From the IMG/VR virus record IMGVR_UViG_2565956608_000011: a DNA stretch of 36,995 nucleotides, one strand, 5' to 3'. How positions within the stretch are numbered: position 1 is the first letter of the stretch; each line of letters begins with the position of its first letter. The notes below the pieces were generated by a model. It was not told the DNA's origin and searched no databases. It saw only the letters and a list, made by a program, of their open reading frames with translations. This document shows, one piece after another, positions 18,694 through 31,914 of the stretch. Position numbers and translations under genes: made by a program. This DNA comes from a virus (lineage: Duplodnaviria > Heunggongvirae > Uroviricota > Caudoviricetes).

Positions 18694-18897
18694 TCAGTCC
18701 CATAGCTGGACGGTCTGCACGGTGGTGGTGGTCGGAATGTCCGGCAGCTCCACCTGCAGCCCGTGAGGTAAAAAGGGGCCGTATTCGGCAAGCCCCGGAT
18801 TTGCCTTCAGTACCTGCTCCGTGACACCCTGCGTGCGCCCGTAATGACGCCAGCAAAGCGCGTCCACCGTGTCATACTGATGCGCACGCACTTTCAT
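18694..18897 (-). CDS. X: tail protein X (LysM-like)
   Basis: 67-aa ORF at the P2 gpX position. Confidence 0.75.
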   Translation of the reverse strand: MKVRAHQYDTVDALCWRHYGRTQGVTEQVLKANPGLAEYGPFLPHGLQVELPDIPTTTTVQTVQLWD

Positions 18898-19424
18898 CAG
18901 ATAAGCTCCACTGTGCAGTGCGGCGCATCCTGCACCCGGCTGATGGCCCAGCGGGCGTCACGCCACAAATCACCGCTGGCTTCTGCCAGTTCTTCGCCTC
19001 GCTTCACACCGGATGCCGTGGCGTCATAGTCCTGGTATCGTTCGTTGAGCATGGCGCGTGCCCAGCAGTAAACCGCGTTGAAATAGTGCTGAATGCGCTC
19101 ACTTTTGCCGTCCAGCTGCTCCGCCGGAACCTCTGCCAGCGAGGCATATCCCAGCATCTGCTGGCGTCTGCGAAACTCATACAGCTCTGCGTTGACCTCC
19201 GAAATTGCCGACAGCGCAACCTGCTTTAAACGCGGCTGCGTCACCGTGCCGTCAGTGCGCATGACACTGCGAAACTCCGACAGGTCCACATCAGGCCAGA
19301 ACGGCGTGTTTCTGATGATTTCCGCCTGTTCCGGTGCCTGTTCTGGCGCAACAAACTTCATGCTGCTTTCTCCTGAAATAGAGGGCGGTGGACGGGGTTT
19401 TGATGTGGCAGTGCCTTTCGCCAC
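18897..19424 (-). CDS. L: head completion/stabilisation protein L
   Basis: 175-aa ORF after the small terminase gene; true start may be an internal Met (MKFVAPEQ). Confidence 0.7.
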   Translation of the reverse strand: MAKGTATSKPRPPPSISGESSMKFVAPEQAPEQAEIIRNTPFWPDVDLSEFRSVMRTDGTVTQPRLKQVALSAISEVNAELYEFRRRQQMLGYASLAEVPAEQLDGKSERIQHYFNAVYCWARAMLNERYQDYDATASGVKRGEELAEASGDLWRDARWAISRVQDAPHCTVELI

Positions 19425-19456: not shown

Positions 19457-20107
19457 TCAGCGGCTGTCATTGCGCAGTCTGCGCTCCAGCTGCTGTTTGT
19501 CTTTTTTCACGCCACAGCGGGGATCGAGCTGTAACGCATGGTTGAGATGATTAAGGGCGGAAGCCGGGTTGCTTTCACTCAGGACAGCGCCAATCGCTTT
19601 ATGCAGACGCGCCCGTGACTGGTCCGGCATATCCAGACCGTCTGTCAGCTCCAGCGTCTGCAGCAACAGATCGGCATCAAAGCCGGTGGCGGCAAGCATT
19701 GCGCTCTGCGCCGCGTCTGCCATTTCCTCTGCCAGCACGGTCTGCACATTGCGATTACCCAGCGGCATCACCCAGCCATGACGCAGGGCATGACGCCCGA
19801 TCTCCAGCGCCCCGGCATAATCTCCGGCATCAATGCGCCACAGCATCACGTACATCAGCACGTCATCCTGTTGAGCGCCTCCGGCAGCCAGGACACCCTC
19901 TGCCCAGGCGACGTATTTCGGCAGCAGCTCCACCTTGATTTCCGCTTTTTTGACCGTGGACTGAACGCCCTTGAGACGGCGGCGGTCTTCCGCCAGTTGC
20001 AGCAGCATCAGGTCATAGCCCGACGCGTGGCGAACACTGCCGCCCTCGCGGGCGGCCTGTTCAGCCTGAACGCGCAGGCGATGCTGCCGTGCGGGACTCA
20101 GGCTCAT
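19457..20107 (-). CDS. M: terminase endonuclease (small) subunit M
   Basis: 216-aa ORF following the capsid gene. Confidence 0.8.
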   Translation of the reverse strand: MSLSPARQHRLRVQAEQAAREGGSVRHASGYDLMLLQLAEDRRRLKGVQSTVKKAEIKVELLPKYVAWAEGVLAAGGAQQDDVLMYVMLWRIDAGDYAGALEIGRHALRHGWVMPLGNRNVQTVLAEEMADAAQSAMLAATGFDADLLLQTLELTDGLDMPDQSRARLHKAIGAVLSESNPASALNHLNHALQLDPRCGVKKDKQQLERRLRNDSR

Positions 20108-20110
20108 GGA

Positions 20111-21169
20111 TTACGCTCCGGTTTCTGCTGCGGCGGCGCTGAAGTCGCCAATCTGGATGTTTTCCACCAGTGCGGCGCAGCGGTAGTCCTCAACCACATA
20201 GGCTTCGTTAACGGATTCAAAGTTTTCAATCCGGTCACGTTTCGGGTTGTCGATAACTGAACGGCGGCGAGTGTCTTCCTGCCAGTAGATGGACAGGTTA
20301 TCCAGACGGGTGATCAGCAGCGCATTCGGCGGGAAGAACGGCGCACGCACGGCCTGCAGGCCACCCATGCGTTTCTGGCTGATGATCATATCTGCAGCCA
20401 GTTTTTCACTGTTCTCCTGCTCTTTGTTGACCAGCGGGAAATACTTGTCAGACAACAGTTCACGACCGCAAATCACCACCAGATCGTCATCGTCCTGGTA
20501 AACCACGTCGATAAGCTCATTGACGGCATCCATCACCACGGCGTCCAGGTTGGCATATTCGCCACCTTTGCCGACTTTCACTGCGCCCGGTGTGGTTTCA
20601 CCGCCCGTGGTGGTGCTGCCCATGACGTGATCCGGTGCATCCTCACGGATTTTCTGCAGCCAGCCTTTATTTACATCCTGCAGCAGTGGGTTTTCGCTAC
20701 GGTTGGAGGTTTTCGCACGCTTCACGCCGTTAAAACCGATCATGATGCGGTCCAGTGCCTGACGTTTCACGATGGCATCACGGATGCGCACCTGGAAATC
20801 CTGAAACTTCGCCCACAGGTCCAGCTTCGCGTAGGTCAGTACCGTGTCAAAGTTGGTCTGCTCGCATTTATATTCCACATCGACCATTAGCGTCGGATCG
20901 ACAGGCTCACGCTCTTTTGCGGTAGTATCAGTGGTTCCGGCAATGGTGCTGCCAACACCCAGCCCCAGCAACTGACCAGACTGCTCAGTCACTGGCGTGA
21001 CGTTAATCAGCGTCAGGAATGCGGCGGATTGCTGGATCTGGTCTTCCAGCGTCTGCTGCACGGACGGCTCCACAGTGAACTTGCTGGACAGTTCTTCAAC
21101 TGCCACACCGTTCAGACGCGCCAGCTGCTGCAGGTAAGCGTTAAAAGCAAAGCGGGTATTCTTCTTCAT
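20111..21169 (-). CDS. N: major capsid protein N
   Basis: 352-aa ORF recognised as P2 gpN-like. Confidence 0.9.
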   Translation of the reverse strand: MKKNTRFAFNAYLQQLARLNGVAVEELSSKFTVEPSVQQTLEDQIQQSAAFLTLINVTPVTEQSGQLLGLGVGSTIAGTTDTTAKEREPVDPTLMVDVEYKCEQTNFDTVLTYAKLDLWAKFQDFQVRIRDAIVKRQALDRIMIGFNGVKRAKTSNRSENPLLQDVNKGWLQKIREDAPDHVMGSTTTGGETTPGAVKVGKGGEYANLDAVVMDAVNELIDVVYQDDDDLVVICGRELLSDKYFPLVNKEQENSEKLAADMIISQKRMGGLQAVRAPFFPPNALLITRLDNLSIYWQEDTRRRSVIDNPKRDRIENFESVNEAYVVEDYRCAALVENIQIGDFSAAAAETGA

Positions 21170-21185: not shown

Positions 21186-22019
21186 TCAGCAATTTGTCAG
21201 AGTGTCAGCGGGGGCATTACCGCCTGTTGCACGCTGACGGTAGTCCTGGCGGTTGTCTTCATGGCTCAGCTTGTCCACCAGTTCATTAAAGGCGGTCAGC
21301 TGTGCCTGCAGGGCTGCCTCCAGCTCAGACAGGCGTTCTTCCTGTTCAGACAGGGATTTTTCGGTGCGCGCACTCAGGTTTTGCTGCTCAGTGGCGACCA
21401 GCTCCACGGCCTTATGCACATCAGAGAACCGGGCATCATCGGACTGCTCTTTTTTGGTGAACAGCGCCGTGACACGGGCAAACAGGGATGTTTTTTCGTC
21501 CTGGACTTCTTCCAGTTCGATCACCGTTTCCTCTGCAGCGGTAAAGAGATTGGCGGGGTTCTGCTTGCGGTTTGCCAGCGGGTTATGGGCTGCACTGGCG
21601 CTGAATGTCAGCATTTCAGTGCCCAGACTGGCAGGGTCATCAGTGGCAGCCAGGCCAACCAGGTAGGCTTTGCCCGTATCAGCAAACTTCGGGCTGACTT
21701 CCATAGAGGTGAATAATTTCTGGCCTTTTTTCACCAGCTCCACCAGGGACTCCGTTGGCTCAACGTCGGCATACAGCGCCATCTTGCCTGCCAGTGGACC
21801 TTCCGTGATTTCTTCAGCAAACAGCGCCGTCACCTTGCCGTAGCGGTTAAAGGTGCTGTCCGGCAGATAAGACTTGATGTGCTCAAGGTTAATCAGCGCG
21901 GTATACACCGCCGGGTTGTAGCTGGCTGCCATCTGTTCCAGCCATTCACGCTGGATTTCGCGTCCGTCGGTGGTGGCACCTTCCACCCCGATGCGAAAAC
22001 GCTTTGCTTTCACTGTCAT
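21186..22019 (-). CDS. O: capsid scaffolding protein O
   Basis: 277-aa ORF with C-terminal coiled coil, upstream of N and divergent from P. Confidence 0.85.
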   Translation of the reverse strand: MTVKAKRFRIGVEGATTDGREIQREWLEQMAASYNPAVYTALINLEHIKSYLPDSTFNRYGKVTALFAEEITEGPLAGKMALYADVEPTESLVELVKKGQKLFTSMEVSPKFADTGKAYLVGLAATDDPASLGTEMLTFSASAAHNPLANRKQNPANLFTAAEETVIELEEVQDEKTSLFARVTALFTKKEQSDDARFSDVHKAVELVATEQQNLSARTEKSLSEQEERLSELEAALQAQLTAFNELVDKLSHEDNRQDYRQRATGGNAPADTLTNC

Positions 22020-22161: not shown

Positions 22162-23928
22162 ATGAACACCACACTGACACCCGCAGATCTCGATCCCCGT
22201 CGGCAGGCCATGCTGCTGTACTTTCAGGGATACCGCGTCGCCCGCATTGCTGAAATGCTGGGAGAGAAAGTTGCAACCGTTCACAGCTGGAAAAAACGCG
22301 ACAAGTGGGGTGACTATGGGCCGCTGGATCAGATGCAGCTCACCACCGCCGCACGCTACTGCCAGCTCATTATGAAGGAGCACAAAGAAGGGAAAGATTT
22401 CAAAGAGATTGACCTGCTGGCGCGCCAGTCGGAACGCCACGCGCGGATCGGCAAGTTTAACAATGGCGGCAACGAAGCCGACTTAAACCCTAACGTCGCC
22501 AACCGTAACAAAGGCCCGCGCCGTCAGCCGGAAAAGAACGTTTTCACCGATGAACAGATTGAGAAGCTGGAAGAAATCTTCCATTCCTCCATGTTCAACT
22601 ACCAGCGCCACTGGTGGGAAGCCGGAAAAACCAACCGCATCCGCAACCTGCTGAAGTCACGCCAGATCGGCGCGACCTTCTATTTTGCCCGTGAAGCCCT
22701 GATTGACGCCCTGCTAACCGGGCGTAACCAGATTTTCCTTTCCGCCAGCAAGGCTCAGGCCCACGTCTTTAAGCAGTACATCATCGACTTCGCCAAAGAA
22801 GTGGAGGTGGAGCTGAAAGGCGATCCGATGGTGCTTCCTAACGGGGCCACGCTTTACTTCCTCGGCACCAATGCCCGCACTGCCCAGAGTTATCACGGCA
22901 ACCTGTATCTGGATGAATATTTCTGGATACCGAAATTCCAGGAGCTGCGCAAAGTGGCTTCCGGTATGGCTATTCACAAGAAATGGCGACAAACCTATTT
23001 TTCCACGCCATCCAGCCTGACTCATAGTGCTTATCCGTTCTGGTCCGGTGCGCTGTTCAACCGTGGGCGCAACAAAGCCGATAAGGTGGACATCGACCTG
23101 TCCCACAGCAATCTGGCCCCCGGCCAGCTGTGCGCTGACGGGCAGTACCGCCAGATAGTCACCGTGGAAGATGCGGTGCGCGGCGGCTGTAACCTGTTCG
23201 ACCTTGACCAGTTGCGCATGGAGTACAGCCCGGACGAATACCAGAATCTGCTGATGTGCGAGTTTGTGGACGATCTCGCGTCCGTGTTCCCGCTCAGCGA
23301 GCTGCAGGCGTGCATGGTGGACAGCTGGGAAGTTTGGACCGACTTTCATGCACTGGCGCTGCGCCCGTTTGGCTGGCGCGAAGTGTGGATCGGTTATGAC
23401 CCGGCAAAAGGTACGCAGAACGGCGACAGCGCCGGATGCGTGGTGGTGGCACCGCCAGCCGTGCCGGGCGGTAAGTTCCGCATTCTTGAGCGTCACCAGT
23501 GGCGCGGGATGGACTTCCGCGCCCAGGCTGACGCCATCAAAAAACTGACTGAACAGTACAACGTGACATACATCGGTATCGACTCAACCGGCGTCGGTCA
23601 TGGGGTTTACGAGAACGTGAAAGCGTTTTTTCCTGCCGTCCGGGAGTTTGTCTACAACCCCAACGTTAAAAATGCCCTGGTACTCAAGGCCTACGACATT
23701 ATCAGTCACCGCCGTCTGGAGTTTGACGCCGGACACACCGACATAGCGCAGTCATTTATGGCAATCCGTCGCGCCACCACCGCCAGCGGCAACCGCCCGA
23801 CCTATGAAGCCAGCCGCAGCGAAGAAGCCAGCCATGCCGATCTGGCGTGGGCAACAATGCACGCACTGTTTAACGAACCGCTGCAGGGCGAGTCCGCCAA
23901 TACCAGCAATATTGTGGAGATTTTTTGA
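22162..23928 (+). CDS. P: terminase ATPase (large) subunit P
   Basis: 588-aa ORF divergent from O, upstream of and overlapping the portal gene. Confidence 0.85.
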   Translation: MNTTLTPADLDPRRQAMLLYFQGYRVARIAEMLGEKVATVHSWKKRDKWGDYGPLDQMQLTTAARYCQLIMKEHKEGKDFKEIDLLARQSERHARIGKFNNGGNEADLNPNVANRNKGPRRQPEKNVFTDEQIEKLEEIFHSSMFNYQRHWWEAGKTNRIRNLLKSRQIGATFYFAREALIDALLTGRNQIFLSASKAQAHVFKQYIIDFAKEVEVELKGDPMVLPNGATLYFLGTNARTAQSYHGNLYLDEYFWIPKFQELRKVASGMAIHKKWRQTYFSTPSSLTHSAYPFWSGALFNRGRNKADKVDIDLSHSNLAPGQLCADGQYRQIVTVEDAVRGGCNLFDLDQLRMEYSPDEYQNLLMCEFVDDLASVFPLSELQACMVDSWEVWTDFHALALRPFGWREVWIGYDPAKGTQNGDSAGCVVVAPPAVPGGKFRILERHQWRGMDFRAQADAIKKLTEQYNVTYIGIDSTGVGHGVYENVKAFFPAVREFVYNPNVKNALVLKAYDIISHRRLEFDAGHTDIAQSFMAIRRATTASGNRPTYEASRSEEASHADLAWATMHALFNEPLQGESANTSNIVEIF

Positions 23929-24953
23929 TGGGAAAGAGTAAGAAGAACCGCGCTGCGGCGACGAATCAGATCCAGCATAAAAACCAGACTACAGCCGAAG
24001 CATTCAGCTTCGGCGATCCCGTTCCAGTTCTGGACCGCCGAGAATTACTGGACTATATGGAATGCGTACAGATGGACCGTTGGTATGAGCCGCCCGTCAG
24101 CTTTGACGGACTGGCGCGCACCTTCCGCGCTGCCGTGCATCACAGTTCCCCGATTGCAGTAAAGTGCAACATTCTGACCAGTACCTATATCCCTCATCCG
24201 CTGCTCAGCCAACAGGCTTTTTCGCGTTTTGTACAGGACTATCTGGTATTTGGTAACGCCTATCTGGAGAAACGCACGAACCGCTTCGGTGAAGTTATCG
24301 CCCTTGAACCTGCGCTGGCAAAATACACCCGACGCGGGTTAGACCTGGATACCTACTGGTTTGTGCAATACGGCATGACCACGCAGCCGTATCAGTTCAC
24401 GAAAGGCAGCATTTTCCATCTGATGGAACCGGACATAAATCAGGAGATCTATGGCCTGCCCGGCTATCTTTCTGCTATTCCGTCAGCCCTGCTCAATGAG
24501 TCCGCCACGCTGTTCCGTCGCAAGTATTACATTAACGGCAGTCACGCGGGCTTCATCATGTACATGACCGATGCCGCGCAGAACCAGGAGGACGTGAACA
24601 ACCTCCGCAACGCGATGAAAAGCGCCAAAGGACCGGGTAACTTCCGCAACCTGTTTATGTACTCACCTAACGGCAAAAAGGACGGGCTTCAGATTATCCC
24701 GTTGTCAGAGGTCGCGGCGAAGGATGAGTTTCTGAATATCAAAAATGTCAGCCGCGATGACATGATGGCTGCGCACCGCGTACCGCCTCAGATGATGGGG
24801 ATAATGCCAAATAATGTTGGGGGTTTTGGGGATGTGGAAAAAGCGAGCTTGGTCTTTGTTCGTAATGAACTTATTCCTTTACAAAAAAGGCTTGAGGAGG
24901 TAAACACATGGGTAAGTGATGAAATAGTTCGCTTTAAAGATTATGTTTTATAG
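23925..24953 (+). CDS. Q: portal (capsid vertex) protein Q
   Basis: 342-aa ORF; P-Q operon as in P2; the last ~50 codons are AT-rich. Confidence 0.85.
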   Translation: MMGKSKKNRAAATNQIQHKNQTTAEAFSFGDPVPVLDRRELLDYMECVQMDRWYEPPVSFDGLARTFRAAVHHSSPIAVKCNILTSTYIPHPLLSQQAFSRFVQDYLVFGNAYLEKRTNRFGEVIALEPALAKYTRRGLDLDTYWFVQYGMTTQPYQFTKGSIFHLMEPDINQEIYGLPGYLSAIPSALLNESATLFRRKYYINGSHAGFIMYMTDAAQNQEDVNNLRNAMKSAKGPGNFRNLFMYSPNGKKDGLQIIPLSEVAAKDEFLNIKNVSRDDMMAAHRVPPQMMGIMPNNVGGFGDVEKASLVFVRNELIPLQKRLEEVNTWVSDEIVRFKDYVL

Positions 24954-24994
24954 TCACCTTAAAATTAAAATAACCATAAAACATTAGTAATCTA

Positions 24995-25016
24995 AAGAGG
25001 CGCTAGAGCGCCTCTT
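24995..25016. terminator. putative bidirectional terminator hairpin between Q and the cargo NTPase gene
   Basis: perfect 9-bp GC-rich stem AAGAGGCGC-taga-GCGCCTCTT; flanking T/A tracts are weak. Confidence 0.4.
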
Positions 25017-25025
25017 CTAATTATC

Positions 25026-26585
25026 TCAACCTTCATAGAGAAGTTTTTTCTTACGTATCTCTTCACTAAATGTCTTGGAATTCAAGTCAATCAAATTAAG
25101 ATCTCGAACTTTTCTAGATGCTGTATATTGACTAGTATCCAGCATATATGCCTCAAAAACTAAGCCATCAGCACCTTTCTTCAAAGTAACCCGAGACTGG
25201 ACTAAATGCACTAATCTTAAATCAATTAACTGGTTAATAGCATCCTTGACAGGGCCAGTCATTTTTTGATTAATTAGAAAAATATTACATTTTGCATCAT
25301 TCAAACAAAATGCCACAAGTTTTGTGAATGCTTCCTCCAAGGCAATACGATCATCATCAGCATCTAATTTAAATTCTTCACGCTTGATATCACCATATTC
25401 ACCAGTAGCAAGATTCACATCTTCTGCACCAATTCGAGGACCTCTAGGATGATCTGGCCCTCTTTCTCTCGCATGGTTAATAGCTTTAGTAAATATCCCA
25501 ATAAAGTCCCTAGTAACACCACCCGAAGCAATAATCAACCTATCTACTGCAGTCGTATTTAATAGTCCATTTACTGTGATAGGCGGCGTTTCTACCATTA
25601 GATTAGTGAGTATTTTTTGCATAAACTGTTTTAAAGTTGCAAATTTTTCCAAAGAAATATCTATATTTATTTCTTTTGCATCATCACCAAGTTTAACACC
25701 AGTAGGAGGATCTGTATGAATATACCATTCACTTCTATGCTTGATAGTACCAATTTTCAACCACAAACCATTTCCTTTGGCAACCCTATGAAAATAATCA
25801 ATAACTTTAGCCTGATCACTTCTTCTAATATGATATAGATCATCAAGTATTAAATATGCCGGCCCTTCAGACAATTCGGAAAGTTTGTTAAAAAACCTTT
25901 GAAACTTAAGTATATTTTGATGTAAGTATTCAGTTTTTAATGATTTATATCCTTCACTAATTTCTTTGGTACCTGTATTTCCTTTTTTAACTCCCACTCC
26001 TACATCTACTGGACCTTGCTTCAAGGAAGCATTACCAGAAGCTTCAAAACTTCTTGTGGAAGTTTCCTTTCTTTGCACATTAATTTCTTCTGGCTGCAAA
26101 AGTTTATTTTCTAAATCTTGAATGATGCCTTTGAGCTCACGGACAAGCTCATTTGTAGGATTTTTTTTGAAAGGTTTCCTTTCCGGCGCTCTACCAAAAA
26201 TTCGATTCCAAAAAGTAGTTTTAGTAGCTGGGGTTAATGCAGCAGTTTCTAACCAAACCTCGAATTCTTGTAGGCTTTTAATAAGAACACTAATTAGGAC
26301 ATCAGGGTATGAATGACCTTTAAATGTCTCCATATCAACAAAAGAAATTGGTCTTCTATCTATTGTTAGATCTGCAACTACCTTCCTCAACAATGAGGAC
26401 TTACCAGAGCCCCTTCTACCAAAAATCAAACTGTGCTGCTTGGCTTTCGATTGAGCAAGAACGCCAGGCGCGGGTTCTATGAATCTCTTGACATTTTCAG
26501 GCGTAGCCCTCATAGCTTCATCACACAAAATGATCAAGTTATCTACTTGTTCATCTCTTAACTGAGATATTTCGTTTTTAGACAT
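25026..26585 (-). CDS. cargo P-loop NTPase of unknown function (candidate anti-phage protein)
   Basis: 519-aa ORF with Walker A GRRGSGKSS (aa ~57-65) and Walker-B-like LILDDL (aa ~240) separated by a Lys/Glu-rich insert; AT-rich unlike the phage backbone; AAGGA RBS. Confidence 0.6.
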   Translation of the reverse strand: MSKNEISQLRDEQVDNLIILCDEAMRATPENVKRFIEPAPGVLAQSKAKQHSLIFGRRGSGKSSLLRKVVADLTIDRRPISFVDMETFKGHSYPDVLISVLIKSLQEFEVWLETAALTPATKTTFWNRIFGRAPERKPFKKNPTNELVRELKGIIQDLENKLLQPEEINVQRKETSTRSFEASGNASLKQGPVDVGVGVKKGNTGTKEISEGYKSLKTEYLHQNILKFQRFFNKLSELSEGPAYLILDDLYHIRRSDQAKVIDYFHRVAKGNGLWLKIGTIKHRSEWYIHTDPPTGVKLGDDAKEINIDISLEKFATLKQFMQKILTNLMVETPPITVNGLLNTTAVDRLIIASGGVTRDFIGIFTKAINHARERGPDHPRGPRIGAEDVNLATGEYGDIKREEFKLDADDDRIALEEAFTKLVAFCLNDAKCNIFLINQKMTGPVKDAINQLIDLRLVHLVQSRVTLKKGADGLVFEAYMLDTSQYTASRKVRDLNLIDLNSKTFSEEIRKKKLLYEG

Positions 26586-26677
26586 TGGAAAATCCTTTTA
26601 GGAAAAAGCTCAAGCTATCAAGAATCCTTTATCCGAACAACTGTTTTAATTTATATATCTATCTGGTTCAGCGCGCG

Positions 26678-26696
26678 CTCGTATCCCCGCCACGCC
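26678..26696 (-). other. cos-like sequence (candidate cohesive-end site)
   Basis: minus strand reads GGCGTGGCGGGGATACGAG; the first 13 nt match the 19-nt cohesive end recalled for 186 (GGCGTGGCGGGGAAAGCAT) and resemble P2 (GGCGAGGCGGGGAAAGCAC); lies in the expected Q-to-A interval. Confidence 0.4.
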
Positions 26697-26966
26697 TGCC
26701 CGCTTTATGTAGTGGTTTTCATGCACCTGCATGCTCTACGCAAAAGCCCGCCAGTTCTGGTGGGCCTTAGCAATAACGATCCTCAAACGATCATGCAATC
26801 TCATGCAGTATAGGCATGCACAACAACTTACCTTAAGAAAAAACATCTGATATGCCCAACTGTTTCGTCTCTTTTCCAGTAGCTTGCTATGGCTTATCTT
26901 TAATGCAACTGTAATCGTGTATGAAGATACAATCCCTACCAATCATAAAAATGAGGAACACAAAGA

Positions 26967-27707
26967 ATGACTGTGCACAAGCTCTCTGGTGCGTTTTTCC
27001 ACGATATGCAGGTTGAGTGGCCCTGCCCTAACTGCAATCAGAAAACCCTACAGATCATTAAAGAAAGTTTCGTCTCGTATGACACACATGATACCCGAAA
27101 ATTCCGCAGTGAAGATTGGTTTGAACCAGAAATGGATTCATCTATTTTCAGTTGCATGGCCCGCTGTTCAAGAATGCAATGTGGTGAAGTTGTGGCCTGT
27201 ACTGGTAAGAGTGGATGGGAACAAGGTTGGGATGAAGAAAGAAATGATATTGAGTACTATCAATGGCACAGACCTTTCACCTTTTACCCATCACTGCATC
27301 CTTTCGAAATACCTAAAAAATGCCCAGAAGAAATTACCGAACCGCTTGAAGCCTCATTTTCCATTTTCCTAATACAGCCTGGCGCAGCAGCAAACCTAAT
27401 TCGAATTTCAGTTGAAAGAATGCTAACCGCTATGGATGTAGCTGAACGTAATGATAATGGCAAACGCATAACTCTACACCACCGTTTAGGGATGCTACCT
27501 GAATTATACGGATCGTTTTCAAGACCTCTTATGGCAATTAAATTTTTAGGAAATGCCGGAAGCCATACCTACGATGAAGTAAAAGTCAAAGACATTGAGG
27601 ATGCTTTTGAGATTATGGAGTACGTCGTCAATGACTTGTTCTCCGGTCGCAAAGAATCTGTCGAAGTATTGACGAAACGATTAAGTGAAAAATTCAAAGA
27701 AAACTGA
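26967..27707 (+). CDS. cargo protein: N-terminal zinc ribbon plus C-terminal DUF4145-like domain (candidate defence protein)
   Basis: 246-aa ORF with GAGGAA RBS; CPNC...C-x3-C-x4-C cysteine cluster; C-terminal region (LGNAGSHTYDEVKVKDIEDAFEIMEYVVNDLF) resembles DUF4145 from memory; AT-rich. Confidence 0.55.
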   Translation: MTVHKLSGAFFHDMQVEWPCPNCNQKTLQIIKESFVSYDTHDTRKFRSEDWFEPEMDSSIFSCMARCSRMQCGEVVACTGKSGWEQGWDEERNDIEYYQWHRPFTFYPSLHPFEIPKKCPEEITEPLEASFSIFLIQPGAAANLIRISVERMLTAMDVAERNDNGKRITLHHRLGMLPELYGSFSRPLMAIKFLGNAGSHTYDEVKVKDIEDAFEIMEYVVNDLFSGRKESVEVLTKRLSEKFKEN

Positions 27708-27835: not shown

Positions 27836-28069
27836 CTAATGCAGCCAGCTGTCGTCTTCCCACACCTTCTGCATAATTTTCATCACTTGTTTTCTTTCTT
27901 CGTCCAGTTGCAGTCCGGTCAGTTCCACACCGTTAGAGCTACCTTTGCGGATACGAATTACCGTTTTTGGATACAGGGGGCGCAGATTGCGGTAAAGCTC
28001 GGATTCAAGGGCATCCAGGATAGACTGGCTAATCTTCTGCTCTTTATCGATCATTATTTCAATGCGCAT
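27836..28069 (-). CDS. dinI: DinI-family protein
   Basis: 77-aa product from Met MRIEIMIDK with GAGGTG RBS; N-terminal MRIE and C-terminal WEDDSWL resemble DinI. Confidence 0.7.
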   Translation of the reverse strand: MRIEIMIDKEQKISQSILDALESELYRNLRPLYPKTVIRIRKGSSNGVELTGLQLDEERKQVMKIMQKVWEDDSWLH

Positions 28070-28079
28070 AAAAGTCACC

Positions 28080-28268
28080 TCAACTGATGACATCCATTGA
28101 GCGGTTGTATTCGTGGGTTCTGATTTTTGCCATGAGTTCATCTGTTAGTTCAGAAACCCACTGCAAAGCCAGCCCCTTCTCTTCATCACTACACTCACTA
28201 GCCGCTACAAGCTTAAGAAAAAAATCAATGCGCTGGAGCTTCAAAGACTCCAAAAAATAGTCCTGCAT
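28080..28268 (-). CDS. small SOS-controlled protein, possible Tum-like antirepressor
   Basis: 62-aa product from internal Met MQDYFLESL with AGGAGG RBS; LexA box lies just upstream; position matches the 186 tum operon between A and cos. Confidence 0.45.
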   Translation of the reverse strand: MQDYFLESLKLQRIDFFLKLVAASECSDEEKGLALQWVSELTDELMAKIRTHEYNRSMDVIS

Positions 28269-28421: not shown

Positions 28422-30836
28422 TTAATACAGATCCCGCCACTTATCATCTTCCTGCAAACGCTGGTTCCGATAGAAGATACGCAGGCCTGCTCCTGACGGA
28501 ATACTGCCGCCGCGAAGGAGTAAATCGACCTCTTTCTCGCTGCCATCAAATCCTCTGGACTTCAGTTCATAGACGAGCTGCTGTCGTTGATGGTCTGTAA
28601 TTCGCTGTTTGTAGTCTCTACGCCGTTTCGGTTTCACCAGGCGTAACCTTGCAGCCAGTTCCCGGCGTTCTTTTTTGTTCATACTGTGCAGGTAATCGTG
28701 CAACTCCTTGTCATCCATACGGGTGATATCCGTTCTGGTATCCCCATCAGCTGATTTGTCTTTCCCTTGTTGGTACAAATTTTCAGCAAGGGGACAGTTA
28801 TTGCCACGAGTCCAAGGGGCGCAAGCGCCCTGGTCGGCTGCCGCCTCCTGAACATCAACGGCCTTACGAACCATTTTCCACTTCACGGCATGAGTGCAGA
28901 TCTTGCCCTCTGCAATAGGTGACCAGATGCCATAAATACGAATGCCGTGATCGCCATAGGCGGTCGGCTCTTCGTTGATTTCATAAGCGGTTCTGATGAG
29001 GTGATATTTGCGGGGAACCAGTACGCCGCCCTGCTTCATGATGTAGGTGGCAAAACAACCAGCATCAGCAGCAGCCAGGATGGCATCAAGGCGTGGGTTA
29101 TCCAGTACCGGCGCACCTGCTTTTTTGTCCCCCTGTTGCCTTGCCGCCTGACCAGCCAGCAATCGCAGTTCACGGTAAGCCTGACGCCCCGGAATGCCAA
29201 AGAAGCGGAATTGCTGAACACGATGCAGAGACGCCCAGGCATTAACGTATTCAGCATTATCACGCAGGGATTTCCCCGTTTCCTTGCTGATCTCGCCAGC
29301 CAGACCACGCCCGTCAATGTTCTTACTGATGTATTTCGCGATGTAGCTTGTTGGCGTTCCTTTGCGCGGGTTAATCAACTCAGACTTAAAGCGCGGCCCA
29401 GTGTTATTGCCCAGCTCCTCGCGGTCTTCACGGATGGCAAACTTACGCAGTAATGCAGTGATGGCACGGCGGTCTTTTTTGCGCATGAAACACAACAGGT
29501 GCCAGTGAACTGTGCCGTCATGATGCGGCTCAGCCACCCGCACGCCATACCAGCGCAACCCGGCTTTGTGCATCGCCTTACGAAATGCAGCAAACATGCC
29601 GACCAGATAATCGCTGCTTTGTCTTACCGTCGCGTTTGTCCAGGTCGGGTTTGGTCTGCCGTTATTGAGCGTGGAATGGAAACGTGACGGACAGGTGATG
29701 GTGTAGAAAACGGCGCAGTCACCGCGCATTTCCGCGATAAGCTCCAGACCTTTAACACAGGCCATCATCTCATTGCGGCGATGCGCCGGGTTGCTGCTGC
29801 TGGCGTTTACCACATCCTCCATGTCCAGCGTGTCGCCGTCTTCGTTCACCAGTTCATGAGAACGGAAAAACTCCAGCGACTTACGGCGCTGCTCACGTTT
29901 ATGCATCACGGCTTCATAGCTGACATAGGGAGATGCTTTTTTGCTGACCAGGCAGACAGCACGCAACTGCTCTTCCCGCCATTCGCAACGCATCTTCCAT
30001 AATTTCCGATACCACCAATCGGCGCACAACATACGCGCCAGCGAACCCGGAATGAGTTCATAGGGCACGGGTTTACGGCGGTTTCTTTTCCAACGGAGTT
30101 GCTCAAACGCAGGAGGGATTACATCCAGACGCAGGGTTTCCGCTGCCACCTTTTCCCATGTCTTGCGGATTTCTTCTGGCTTAACGTCATCGGTGGCATA
30201 CAAATCACCACAAGCTGCATCAAGGCACATGCTCATATGCGCGGCAACAAGGGTAGACAGGCGCTTCACCTGATCCTGACTCATTTCAGGCAGGATCAGC
30301 AGGCCGTCCAGCCCTTCATGGCTTGCCATAAAGCGAAAAGAAGTGGATAGCTGACTCTCGCGTACATGCTCCAGTCGTTCCAGACATGGCTTAATCGTCT
30401 CACGCAAATAGCGGGAATAAGCCTTTGGCCTGCCCAGGCTGCTGAAGTATTCAATACGTTGCATCAGCGGCTTGCTGATATGGGAAGGCTGGGCGTTGAC
30501 GTCCGCCAGAATGACCATATCCGGATTAAAACGCTGCTGCTCATGCGCCAGCTTTGCCCGACTAATGAGCTTATCCTGCTCGATTTCGCGCTGGACAGGA
30601 TCACGGGATTCATTAAAGAAATAACGCTCCCAGACCTGATCACTCAGCGCCTCACGGCGCAGCTGTTCCTGCTCGTTATCGGCAGCGTACAGAGTGATCA
30701 GGTTTGAAAGCGCAGAAACCGGCGCAACTTCCGCCGGGTCCAGATAAGGGTTAATGGCCTTTTTCGGGCTGCTCCATGAGAATGCTGCTGCGACCTCGTT
30801 AAAGCCGCTGCAGTTGTTCATATCAGCATGGCTCAT
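28422..30836 (-). CDS. A: replication initiation protein A (rolling-circle nickase type)
   Basis: 804-aa ORF, last large gene of the early operon; recognised as P2/186 gpA-like. Confidence 0.85.
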
Positions 30837-31690
30837 GCACGCACTCCGTACACGGCAGAACTATCCACGCCACGCGAAGGATCAAATCCCACCCAGCAGC
30901 GCGGCCCGGAAACAGCGATGATTTCTGTTGCTGATTTACACTCGCCAGCTGCCACACCGATGCTGCGTTTTACCTTGATATAGTGGTGAGTAAAATTGCG
31001 ATACAGCGAACGAATCAGGGATGTGTCACTGTTAGAAACAATGACCGGATGTCCTTCAGATGATCGATGTTCAAGAACGGATGCCAGGTGATACTGGTCA
31101 TCTTCAGTGAAACCATCAGTGTGATAGCCGGAAAACGTACCGTCATAAGGCGGATCGCAATACACCACATCCCCTGCCTTCAACATCGCCAGCGTTTCAT
31201 CAAAGCTGGCGCAGATAAACGTTGCCCGCTGGGCTTTTTCTGCAAATGCGCGAATTTCTTTTTCAGGGAAATACGGATTTTTATAATTCCCGTAGGGAAT
31301 GTTGAAATGTCCGCTCTTGTTATAACGACATAACCCACGGTAACCGTGACGATTGAGATACAGGAAATATACTGCTTTCATGAAATCAGTAATTTCAGAT
31401 GAGTAATTAAACTCCTGCCTTATGTTGTAATAAGCCACCTCCCTGTTTGCTTCCTCAAATAAGACTCTGGCACGAGATATAAATGATTCGCAATCAGCGG
31501 CAATCTTTTTATAGAGGTTGATTAAATCAGGATTAATATCAGCAACCAGATAGCTGGGGTAATCCGTCGCCATCATCACAGCACAGGAACCCGCGAAAGG
31601 TTCAACCAGTCGCGGGCCAGCAGGAAGGTGTTTTTTCAGTTCGGACATAATGGCGGTTTTATTACCCGCCCATTTCAGGATGGTGCTCAT
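30833..31690 (-). CDS. Dam-family DNA N6-adenine methyltransferase
   Basis: motifs LKWAGNK, VEPFAGS and DPPY; start at ATG 31690 (GGAGGT RBS) overlapping the upstream stop (ATGA); stop overlaps the A start. Confidence 0.8.
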
Positions 31691-31914
31691 ACAGCACCTC
31701 CGTTGTAATGTTTGCCTTTCAGCTCTGCGATTTCCTGGCAGGTAATGCAAAGCTGCACTCCCGGAATGGCGCGGCGTCGTGCTGGCGGAATTGGCGCTTC
31801 ACATTCAATACAAAGCACGCGAGACACGCCCGGTGTTTTGGCACGGGCAGCACGAATATGGCGCTGGCGTTCTTCTTCAACGCGCTGCTGTACGAGATCC
31901 ATTGCATCAGCCAT
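31687..31914 (-). CDS. TraR/DksA-family C4 zinc-finger protein
   Basis: 75 aa with CxxC-x17-CxxC (CIECEAPI...CITCQE). Confidence 0.7.
   Translation of the reverse strand: MADAMDLVQQRVEEERQRHIRAARAKTPGVSRVLCIECEAPIPPARRRAIPGVQLCITCQEIAELKGKHYNGGAV

Follow-up and report, generated by a model that had tools for sequence, protein, structure and literature searches.

The DNA of phages P2 and 186 and of the satellite P4 terminates in 5′ cohesive ends of 19 nt, which are embedded in a conserved core of 55 bp (Ziermann & Calendar 1990, as cited by PMC3931495, PMC5694545, and PMC2231350). According to literature cited in PMC3931495, the ends of all three were determined chemically. The cos region is the sole homology between P2 and P4 (PMC9122126), and monomeric circles are the packaging substrate in the P2 family (PMC2231350). 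The surroundings of cos have also received attention: the interval from cosL to Q is called a hotspot in PMC5694545, which cites Dodd & Egan 1996 and Nakayama 1999, and the whole gpA–gpQ interval beside cos is a defence hotspot (Rousset et al. 2022, PMC9122126).

The cos site and the prophage that carries it

The window, i.e., the whole stretch of 36,995 nt that was analysed, matches the chromosome of E. coli MB20 (NZ_CP073976.1) with 100% identity, and the element that hosts the site is a complete P2-family prophage of the Fels-2 type. Its P2-family genes, identified with Pfam, run opposite to the P2 map. They encode the head completion protein gpL (18897-19424), a gpM-like small terminase subunit (19457-20107, minus strand; Phage_term_smal, PF05944, 3e-40), the capsid protein gpN (20111-21169), the scaffold gpO (21186-22019), a gpP-like large terminase subunit (22162-23928, plus strand; Terminase_6N 3e-65, Terminase_6C 1.7e-49, Terminase_5 3.3e-27), and a gpQ-like portal protein (23925-24953, plus strand; Phage_portal 1.1e-17). 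On the other side of the site lie the genes for DinI (27836-28141), the replication protein gpA (28422-30836), and a Dam methylase (30833-31750). The region of interest, 26586-26966, is exactly the intergenic region of two divergent accessory genes, one for a P-loop NTPase and the other for a DUF4145 protein.

A sequence-only reading of this DNA had placed a cos-like sequence on the minus strand at 26678-26696 and had matched its first 13 nt to the cohesive end of 186. Both statements proved right: the strand reads GGCGTGGCGGGGATACGAG at these positions, and the first 13 nt are the start of the 186 end, GGCGTGGCGGGGAAAGCAT (NC_001317, 1-19). The whole 19-mer is identical to positions 1-19 of Salmonella phage SEN8 (KT630647.2), annotated there as “putative cos site,” and the end of the SEN8 record aligns to 26697, the base adjoining the 19-mer. 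The sequence also has the G+C-rich 19-nt form of P2-family ends, GGCG(A/T)GGCGGGGA......, and is flanked by the gpA-side accessory region and by the portal gene Q, in an element that encodes terminase subunits of the P2 type.

The alignment to the P2 and 186 cos regions that the reading had proposed was run by joining the right and left record ends of P2, 186, and P4 and aligning them to the minus strand of the window. It is gapless across the 19-mer and both flanks, AAAACC...AAGCGGGCR before and GCGCGC after, the 19-mer falling on cosL as annotated in P2 and 186 and on bases 1-19 of the linear P4 record. An IMG/VR scan with a pattern covering only -5 to +13 returned 120 stretches, of which 116 proved to be true cos regions that share the register. 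By comparison with P2, 186, P4, and 116 cos regions, the window possesses the conserved core of about 55 bp, with the consensus ...TGCATtAAAACCnnnnCATaAAGCGGGCR before the 19-mer and (T)GCGCGC after it.

Elsewhere in the window there is no competitor. The 13-mer occurs exactly once, and the two other sites that resemble it with at most two mismatches are unrelated. A second cos beside the Q stop codon was considered and rejected, because the mismatch scan with the 13-mer found no cos-like sequence there; this stretch holds only a hairpin between convergent genes. The hairpin is G+C-rich (AGAGGCGCTAGAGCGCCTCT, 24995-25017), separates the portal and NTPase genes, and is probably a bidirectional terminator, the counterpart of tQ of P2.

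The cos call has held up well: 19-mer, both flanks, and genomic position all match a P2-family cos. As far as sequence can tell, the site has every attribute of such a cos and is one of the Fels-2 type. Homology to P2, 186, P4, and SEN8 places cosN at 26678-26696 on the minus strand, with nicks predicted between 26697 and 26696 on the minus strand and between 26678 and 26677 on the plus strand, which would leave 5′ overhangs. A correct placement of cos fixes the ends of the virion genome.

That RefSeq contains no annotation within 26586-26966 would be compatible with an inactive relic in a defective prophage, one that is no longer cut. Every conserved position of the cos block is intact, however; the 19-mer is the commonest variant encountered (45 of the 123 surveyed loci), and those head and packaging genes that were checked are all full length with strong family matches. 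A relic is extremely improbable. The site is the standard cos of a common prophage type, and there is nothing surprising about it.

Layout and conservation of the cos block

The conserved cos block, a homology unit between variable flanks, extends over about 155 bp (26668-26825, minus strand; about -129 to +29 from the cut). The 41 loci that share the 19-mer resemble the window at an identity of 0.66-1.0 within -130 to +29 and of 0.18-0.34 beyond. Matches to phages in BLAST span 26664/26671 to 26819/26825, and homology to other phages starts at about 26668. Consensus sequences were derived from 77 P2-like and P4-like representatives with less than 80% mutual identity over -170 to -45.

On the portal side the block contains a GCGCGC flank (26671-26677, minus strand; +20 to +26), with the consensus ...AGCA.TGCGCGC. 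On the gpA side the cut is adjoined by the right-arm core, AAAACCACTACATAAAGCGGGCA (26697-26719, minus strand; -23 to -1), which is part of the published 55-bp core, has the consensus AAAACCGcccCATaAAGCGGGCA, and shows an identity of 0.92-0.99 within the Fels-2-type group. The only terminator-like call in 26400-27100 (26700-26715) falls inside this core and is probably incidental. A conserved hairpin beside the cut (-20 to -5) was dropped as a candidate, its pairing not being kept between P2, 186, and the window, and an Rfam search of 26000-27400 returned nothing relevant.

The repeats quoted in the sequence-only reading are present in the window, with ATGCA at 26721, 26793, 26803, 26816, and 26903 and TGCAT at 26728. 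On the minus strand, the five copies near cos read TGCAT at -29, -101, -111, and -124 and ATGCA at -36. All lie on the gpA side of the cut, as an inverted pair at a distance of 25-38 bp and three direct copies at 97-124 bp. The proximal pair (26720-26733, with ATGCA at 26721 and TGCAT at 26728) forms the palindrome CATGCA-NN-TGCATG, which reads catgcacctgcatg on the plus strand and has the family consensus ATGCAacTGCATtAAAA among the 77 representatives. The distal trio (26792-26821, minus strand; plus-strand ATGCA at 26793, 26803, and 26816) consists of direct repeats, each TGCATG, and its outer edge coincides with a recombination breakpoint at 26822.

Between pair and trio lies a central palindrome (26746-26766, minus strand), here extended to a G+C hairpin and followed by CTTTTG. 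Its family consensus is CGCCAGnnCTGGCG, at 26749-26762 in the window (cgCCAG..ctGGcg at -66 to -53), and the RNA fold of the hairpin has an energy of -18 kcal/mol (z -1.9). The CGCCAGnnCTGGCG palindrome is kept in most P2-like and P4-like cos regions and is absent from P2 itself. It could serve for protein binding, bend the DNA, or terminate read-through from the early operon in the direction of cos. Two GATC (Dam) sites, at 26778-26781 and 26789-26792 (GATCGTTTGAGGATC, minus strand), are situated between the palindrome and the distal trio. The pair is conserved in cos regions of the Fels-2 type and the prophage has its own Dam methylase; a link between methylation and packaging at these sites is conceivable.

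The density of ATGCA in the window was rejected as evidence in its own right: four copies within 110 bp are the window maximum, and 49 of 300 windows simulated under a Markov-1 model (16%) reach the same count. The significance of the repeats comes instead from the comparison with related cos regions. GCAT is found at -28 in all 77 representatives, at -100 in 64, at -110 in 59, and at -123 in 40, against a background of 1.2 per position, while most positions between the repeats show no consensus. All five copies near cos in the window sit on these family-conserved positions, which are not biased by the scan since its pattern covered only -5 to +13.

Satellites and more distant phages extend the picture. 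The distal trio is present in 9/9 psu-adjacent P4-like loci, P4 included; in the eight others, 167-202 bp lie between the end of the psu homologue and the cut. Pseudomonas phage phiCTX (NC_003278) possesses YGCAG at -28, -37, -99, and -109, i.e., an altered motif in the same register, with a CCAGCAG...CTGCTGG palindrome between the repeats, and features called “R4, R5, R6 repeats” lie across cos in its GenBank record. P2 is without the central palindrome and one proximal copy, which indicates that not every element is essential.

One further 19-mer variant, GGCGTGGCGGGGAGAGCAT, was seen in loci L012, L057, L087, L089, and L105, all of which have a psu homologue just upstream; it occurs in no portal-gene locus, only in P4-like satellites. 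This limitation to psu loci suggests that some satellites may have a cos variant absent from the sampled helpers.

The repeats as probable packaging signals

In phage λ, cos consists of cosN and of a cosB (R3, I1/IHF, R2, R1) that is bound by the small terminase gpNu1. By analogy with λ cosB, the repeats described here are most likely terminase recognition elements, for which the gpM-like small terminase subunit is, most likely, the reader; the gpP-like large subunit is the presumed nuclease/ATPase at cosN. Two observations argue for packaging. P4 satellites have retained the repeats and, since P4 shares only cos with P2, packaging is the function to be expected. In phiCTX the motif is altered in every copy with the positions kept, as expected of sites that are read by a co-evolving phage protein. 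The proposed split of the motif is TGCAT in enterobacterial phages and P4 satellites and YGCAG in phiCTX.

On this model, gpM and gpP would recognise the block of about 155 bp (about 26668-26825), and the terminase would make two nicks 19 bp apart around 26678-26696 to yield the 5′ cohesive ends GGCGTGGCGGGGATACGAG. The ATGCA/TGCAT copies would form the recognition part, in the role of λ cosB: the small terminase would bind them and so position the nuclease on cosN. In the virion DNA the NTPase gene would be leftmost, beside the portal gene, and the DUF4145 gene rightmost. Both accessory genes would thus be terminal in the packaged DNA, in a cos-adjacent hotspot known for anti-phage systems. 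A cosmid study credits better transduction to longer cos flanks (PMC9594776).

The sequence-only reading had left two roles open for the repeats, terminase recognition elements or operators of the DUF4145 gene. The first is favoured by the family-conserved positions, P4, and phiCTX. The second, which can be widened to operators or promoter elements of any cos-adjacent cargo gene in place of packaging signals, draws on location: the DUF4145 gene and its divergent neighbour have the distal trio between them, 146-174 bp ahead of the DUF4145 start codon, and annotation puts the old-tin mRNA starts of P2 some 150 bp from the cut, beside the distal trio, with a promoter that overlaps the repeats. 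There is also a weak -35/-10 candidate (ATGCAA-19-TACAAT) that shares bases with the sixth ATGCA, at 26903.

Yet the repeats are unchanged in E. coli genomes where an unrelated gene stands in place of DUF4145 (H54-H56), and this constancy beside a different neighbour implies that it is cos, and not the gene, with which they travel. The neighbours in 186 (orf97) and P4 (psu) are oriented towards cos, with their ends upstream of the repeats, which leaves no promoter to regulate. The positions of the repeats are fixed relative to the cut and not to any gene start. Sequence beyond -127 is unrelated between loci, similarity there being random in the 41 loci with the same 19-mer, from which it follows that every cargo gene arrives with an upstream region of its own. 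Neither a consensus scan of 26400-27100, which was without a match, nor a more lenient one found a sigma-70-like promoter in the block; with the lenient settings, the DUF4145 gene had weak candidates only and the NTPase gene had none. Operators in place of packaging signals are therefore highly unlikely, though the P2 old-tin starts beside the distal trio leave room for a second, transcriptional role. The sixth ATGCA is itself outside the block, and what it overlaps (26903-26933) is the only weak sigma-70 candidate for the DUF4145 gene, with ATGCAA, a 19-nt spacer, and TACAAT ending at 26933.

Alternatively, an architectural protein of the host might bind the repeats and the palindrome, or these might work by the shape of the DNA (bending), so that the packaging complex assembles, with the terminase itself reading only the core of about 55 bp. 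In λ, cosB requires IHF between the R sites, and the conserved CGCCAGnnCTGGCG palindrome of the P2 family resembles a dimer-binding site. TGCAT, however, is not known to match any E. coli architectural-protein consensus. The 55-bp core is all that PMC3931495 and PMC2231350 mention, and it would take in at most the proximal pair. The change from TGCAT to YGCAG at kept positions in phiCTX, a phage of another host genus, fits a phage-encoded reader better than a host factor, and we regard the latter as unlikely. Recognition of the repeats by the terminase is the reading retained below.

The identification of cos, the conserved core, and the cos-adjacent hotspot are already established. In the literature searched, outside which lie Ziermann & Calendar 1990 and Christie & Calendar 2016, there was no description of TGCAT repeats at the cos of P2 or P4. 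Nor did that literature contain the fixed-register extended layout or the sharp block edges; with the key 1990 paper outside it, these are not claimed as new.

Cargo genes beside cos and comparison with known systems

The portal-side cargo (25026-26585, minus strand) encodes a P-loop NTPase of 519 aa and is transcribed away from cos; the protein has a Pfam match to ORC-CDC6-like (6.5e-10) and a weak PADLOC match to mad8 (3e-6). Apart from the last 33 bases, which are cos core, there is no DNA match to the gene at ≥85% identity in 50,697 phage records. It occurs in four of 5426 E. coli genomes, always beside cos, and is a candidate single-gene defence system. The gpA-side cargo (26967-27707, plus strand), also transcribed away from cos, is a DUF4145 protein (Pfam DUF4145, 5e-13) with a weak PADLOC match to PD-T7-4 (2e-5). 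Its gene is common beside cos in E. coli prophages and is found in SEN8 too, where a homologous region with the 741-nt ORF SEN8_49 adjoins the right record end; the DUF4145 upstream region is 91.9% identical in that phage. The equivalent place in 186 is taken by Orf97, a protein annotated as a block to 186 infection; it was rejected as a homologue, as the two proteins show no similarity.

The NTPase gene had been described in the sequence-only reading as cargo in an unusual position, between cos and the portal gene. This is true only against P2 and 186, where the portal gene is 171 and 177 bp from cos; here the distance from cos to the Q stop codon is 1728 bp (1.7 kb). Among the 94 loci with a portal gene found after cos, the distance is ≤220 bp in 44, 221-600 bp in 7, and >600 bp in 43, so that 50 of them exceed 220 bp, and for loci with the GGCGTGGCGGGGATACGAG type of cos the median is 1812 bp (n = 31). 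The interval holds one gene of 1.7 kb in Fels-2, two genes in SEN8, and the ctx toxin gene in phiCTX. Cargo between cos and the portal gene is normal for this lineage, in a place that the literature already calls a hotspot.

The two sides of cos also behave independently. Some match to the region occurs in 1277 of 5426 complete E. coli genomes, and in 56 of 60 genome rows, sampled through the ranking of the 1277, the match is confined to about 26648-26825 (starting at 26648-26672 and ending at 26812-26825). Both cargo genes occur together in one of the 5426 genomes. Three rows (H54-H56) share 24954-26822 of the window at ≥99%, i.e., the NTPase gene and cos, and carry the unrelated gene instead of DUF4145; others (H57-H64) share 26664/26670-27800, i.e., cos and DUF4145, and have a different portal-side gene. 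The breakpoints, 26664-26670 and 26822, are the edges of the block. As in a hotspot, the gpA–gpQ content beside cos is variable, the flanks are unrelated between loci, and the cargo genes assort independently.

Since the block alone is common to phages and satellites with unrelated flanks, it serves as a junction for independent accessory-gene exchange; the block of about 155 bp is the conserved joint of two independently exchanged cargo slots. It has been suggested that cos promotes exchange (PMC9122126), with which the present data agree, the breakpoints being added here. In the literature searched, no paper separated the two sides of cos or mapped breakpoints.

Taken together, we consider it likely that this is a P2-family cos with terminase-read repeats in a block of about 155 bp, which is also a junction for the independent exchange of accessory genes. 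The wider proposal would have the P2-family packaging signal be a fixed-spacing composite of about 155 bp (cosN, inverted TGCAT pair, CGCCAGnnCTGGCG, three direct TGCAT) in place of the customary 55-bp core, its motif co-evolving with the terminase, its two sharp edges defining independent cargo slots, one per end of the virion DNA, and cos the joint at which defence genes are shuffled; for this the chances appear evenly balanced. The comparison offers a precise and testable packaging map for P2 and P4, comprising five repeat positions, a palindrome, and block edges, which could aid the design of P2/P4 cosmids for antimicrobial delivery. The cos block also offers a concrete picture of defence-gene swapping at cos.

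Compared with P2, 186, and P4, the site is alike in its flanks (AAAACC...AAGCGGGCR; GCGCGC), genomic position, terminase family, and the distances of TGCAT from the cut. The 19-mer equals that of 186 at 13 of 19 positions and that of P2 at 12 of 19, and differs from both in its last six bases (ATACGAG here versus AAAGCAT and AAAGCAC). The repeat is TGCATG here and TGCATT in P2, 186, and P4, the central palindrome is here extended to a terminator-like hairpin, and cargo of about 1.7 kb stands between cos and the portal gene, versus 171-177 bp in P2 and 186. The closest relatives are Fels-2, SEN8, and RE2010 (Felsduovirus), in which the 19-mer is identical and the block 91-95% identical. Fels-2 and SEN8 share the presence of genes between cos and the portal gene, and SEN8 the homologous gpA-side region (91.9% over the DUF4145 upstream region, with SEN8_49, 741 nt, at the equivalent position), whereas the portal-side 519-aa NTPase sets this prophage apart from the group, having no DNA match in the phage collection.

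The likeness to λ cos is one of functional analogy: a nick site, one-sided short repeats, an intervening element, and fixed spacing, here with five TGCAT copies on the gpA side only and in fixed register across the 77 representatives. There is no sequence similarity to λ, the overhang is 19 nt here versus 12 nt, and P2-family packaging proceeds from monomeric circles (PMC2231350). A comparison with λ cos and gpNu1 gave no homology; the small terminase belongs to PF05944, the P2 type, and not to the Nu1 family, which makes the likeness to cosB functional only. With the gpA–gpQ defence hotspot, finally, the locus shares variable candidate defence genes directly beside cos, on both sides.
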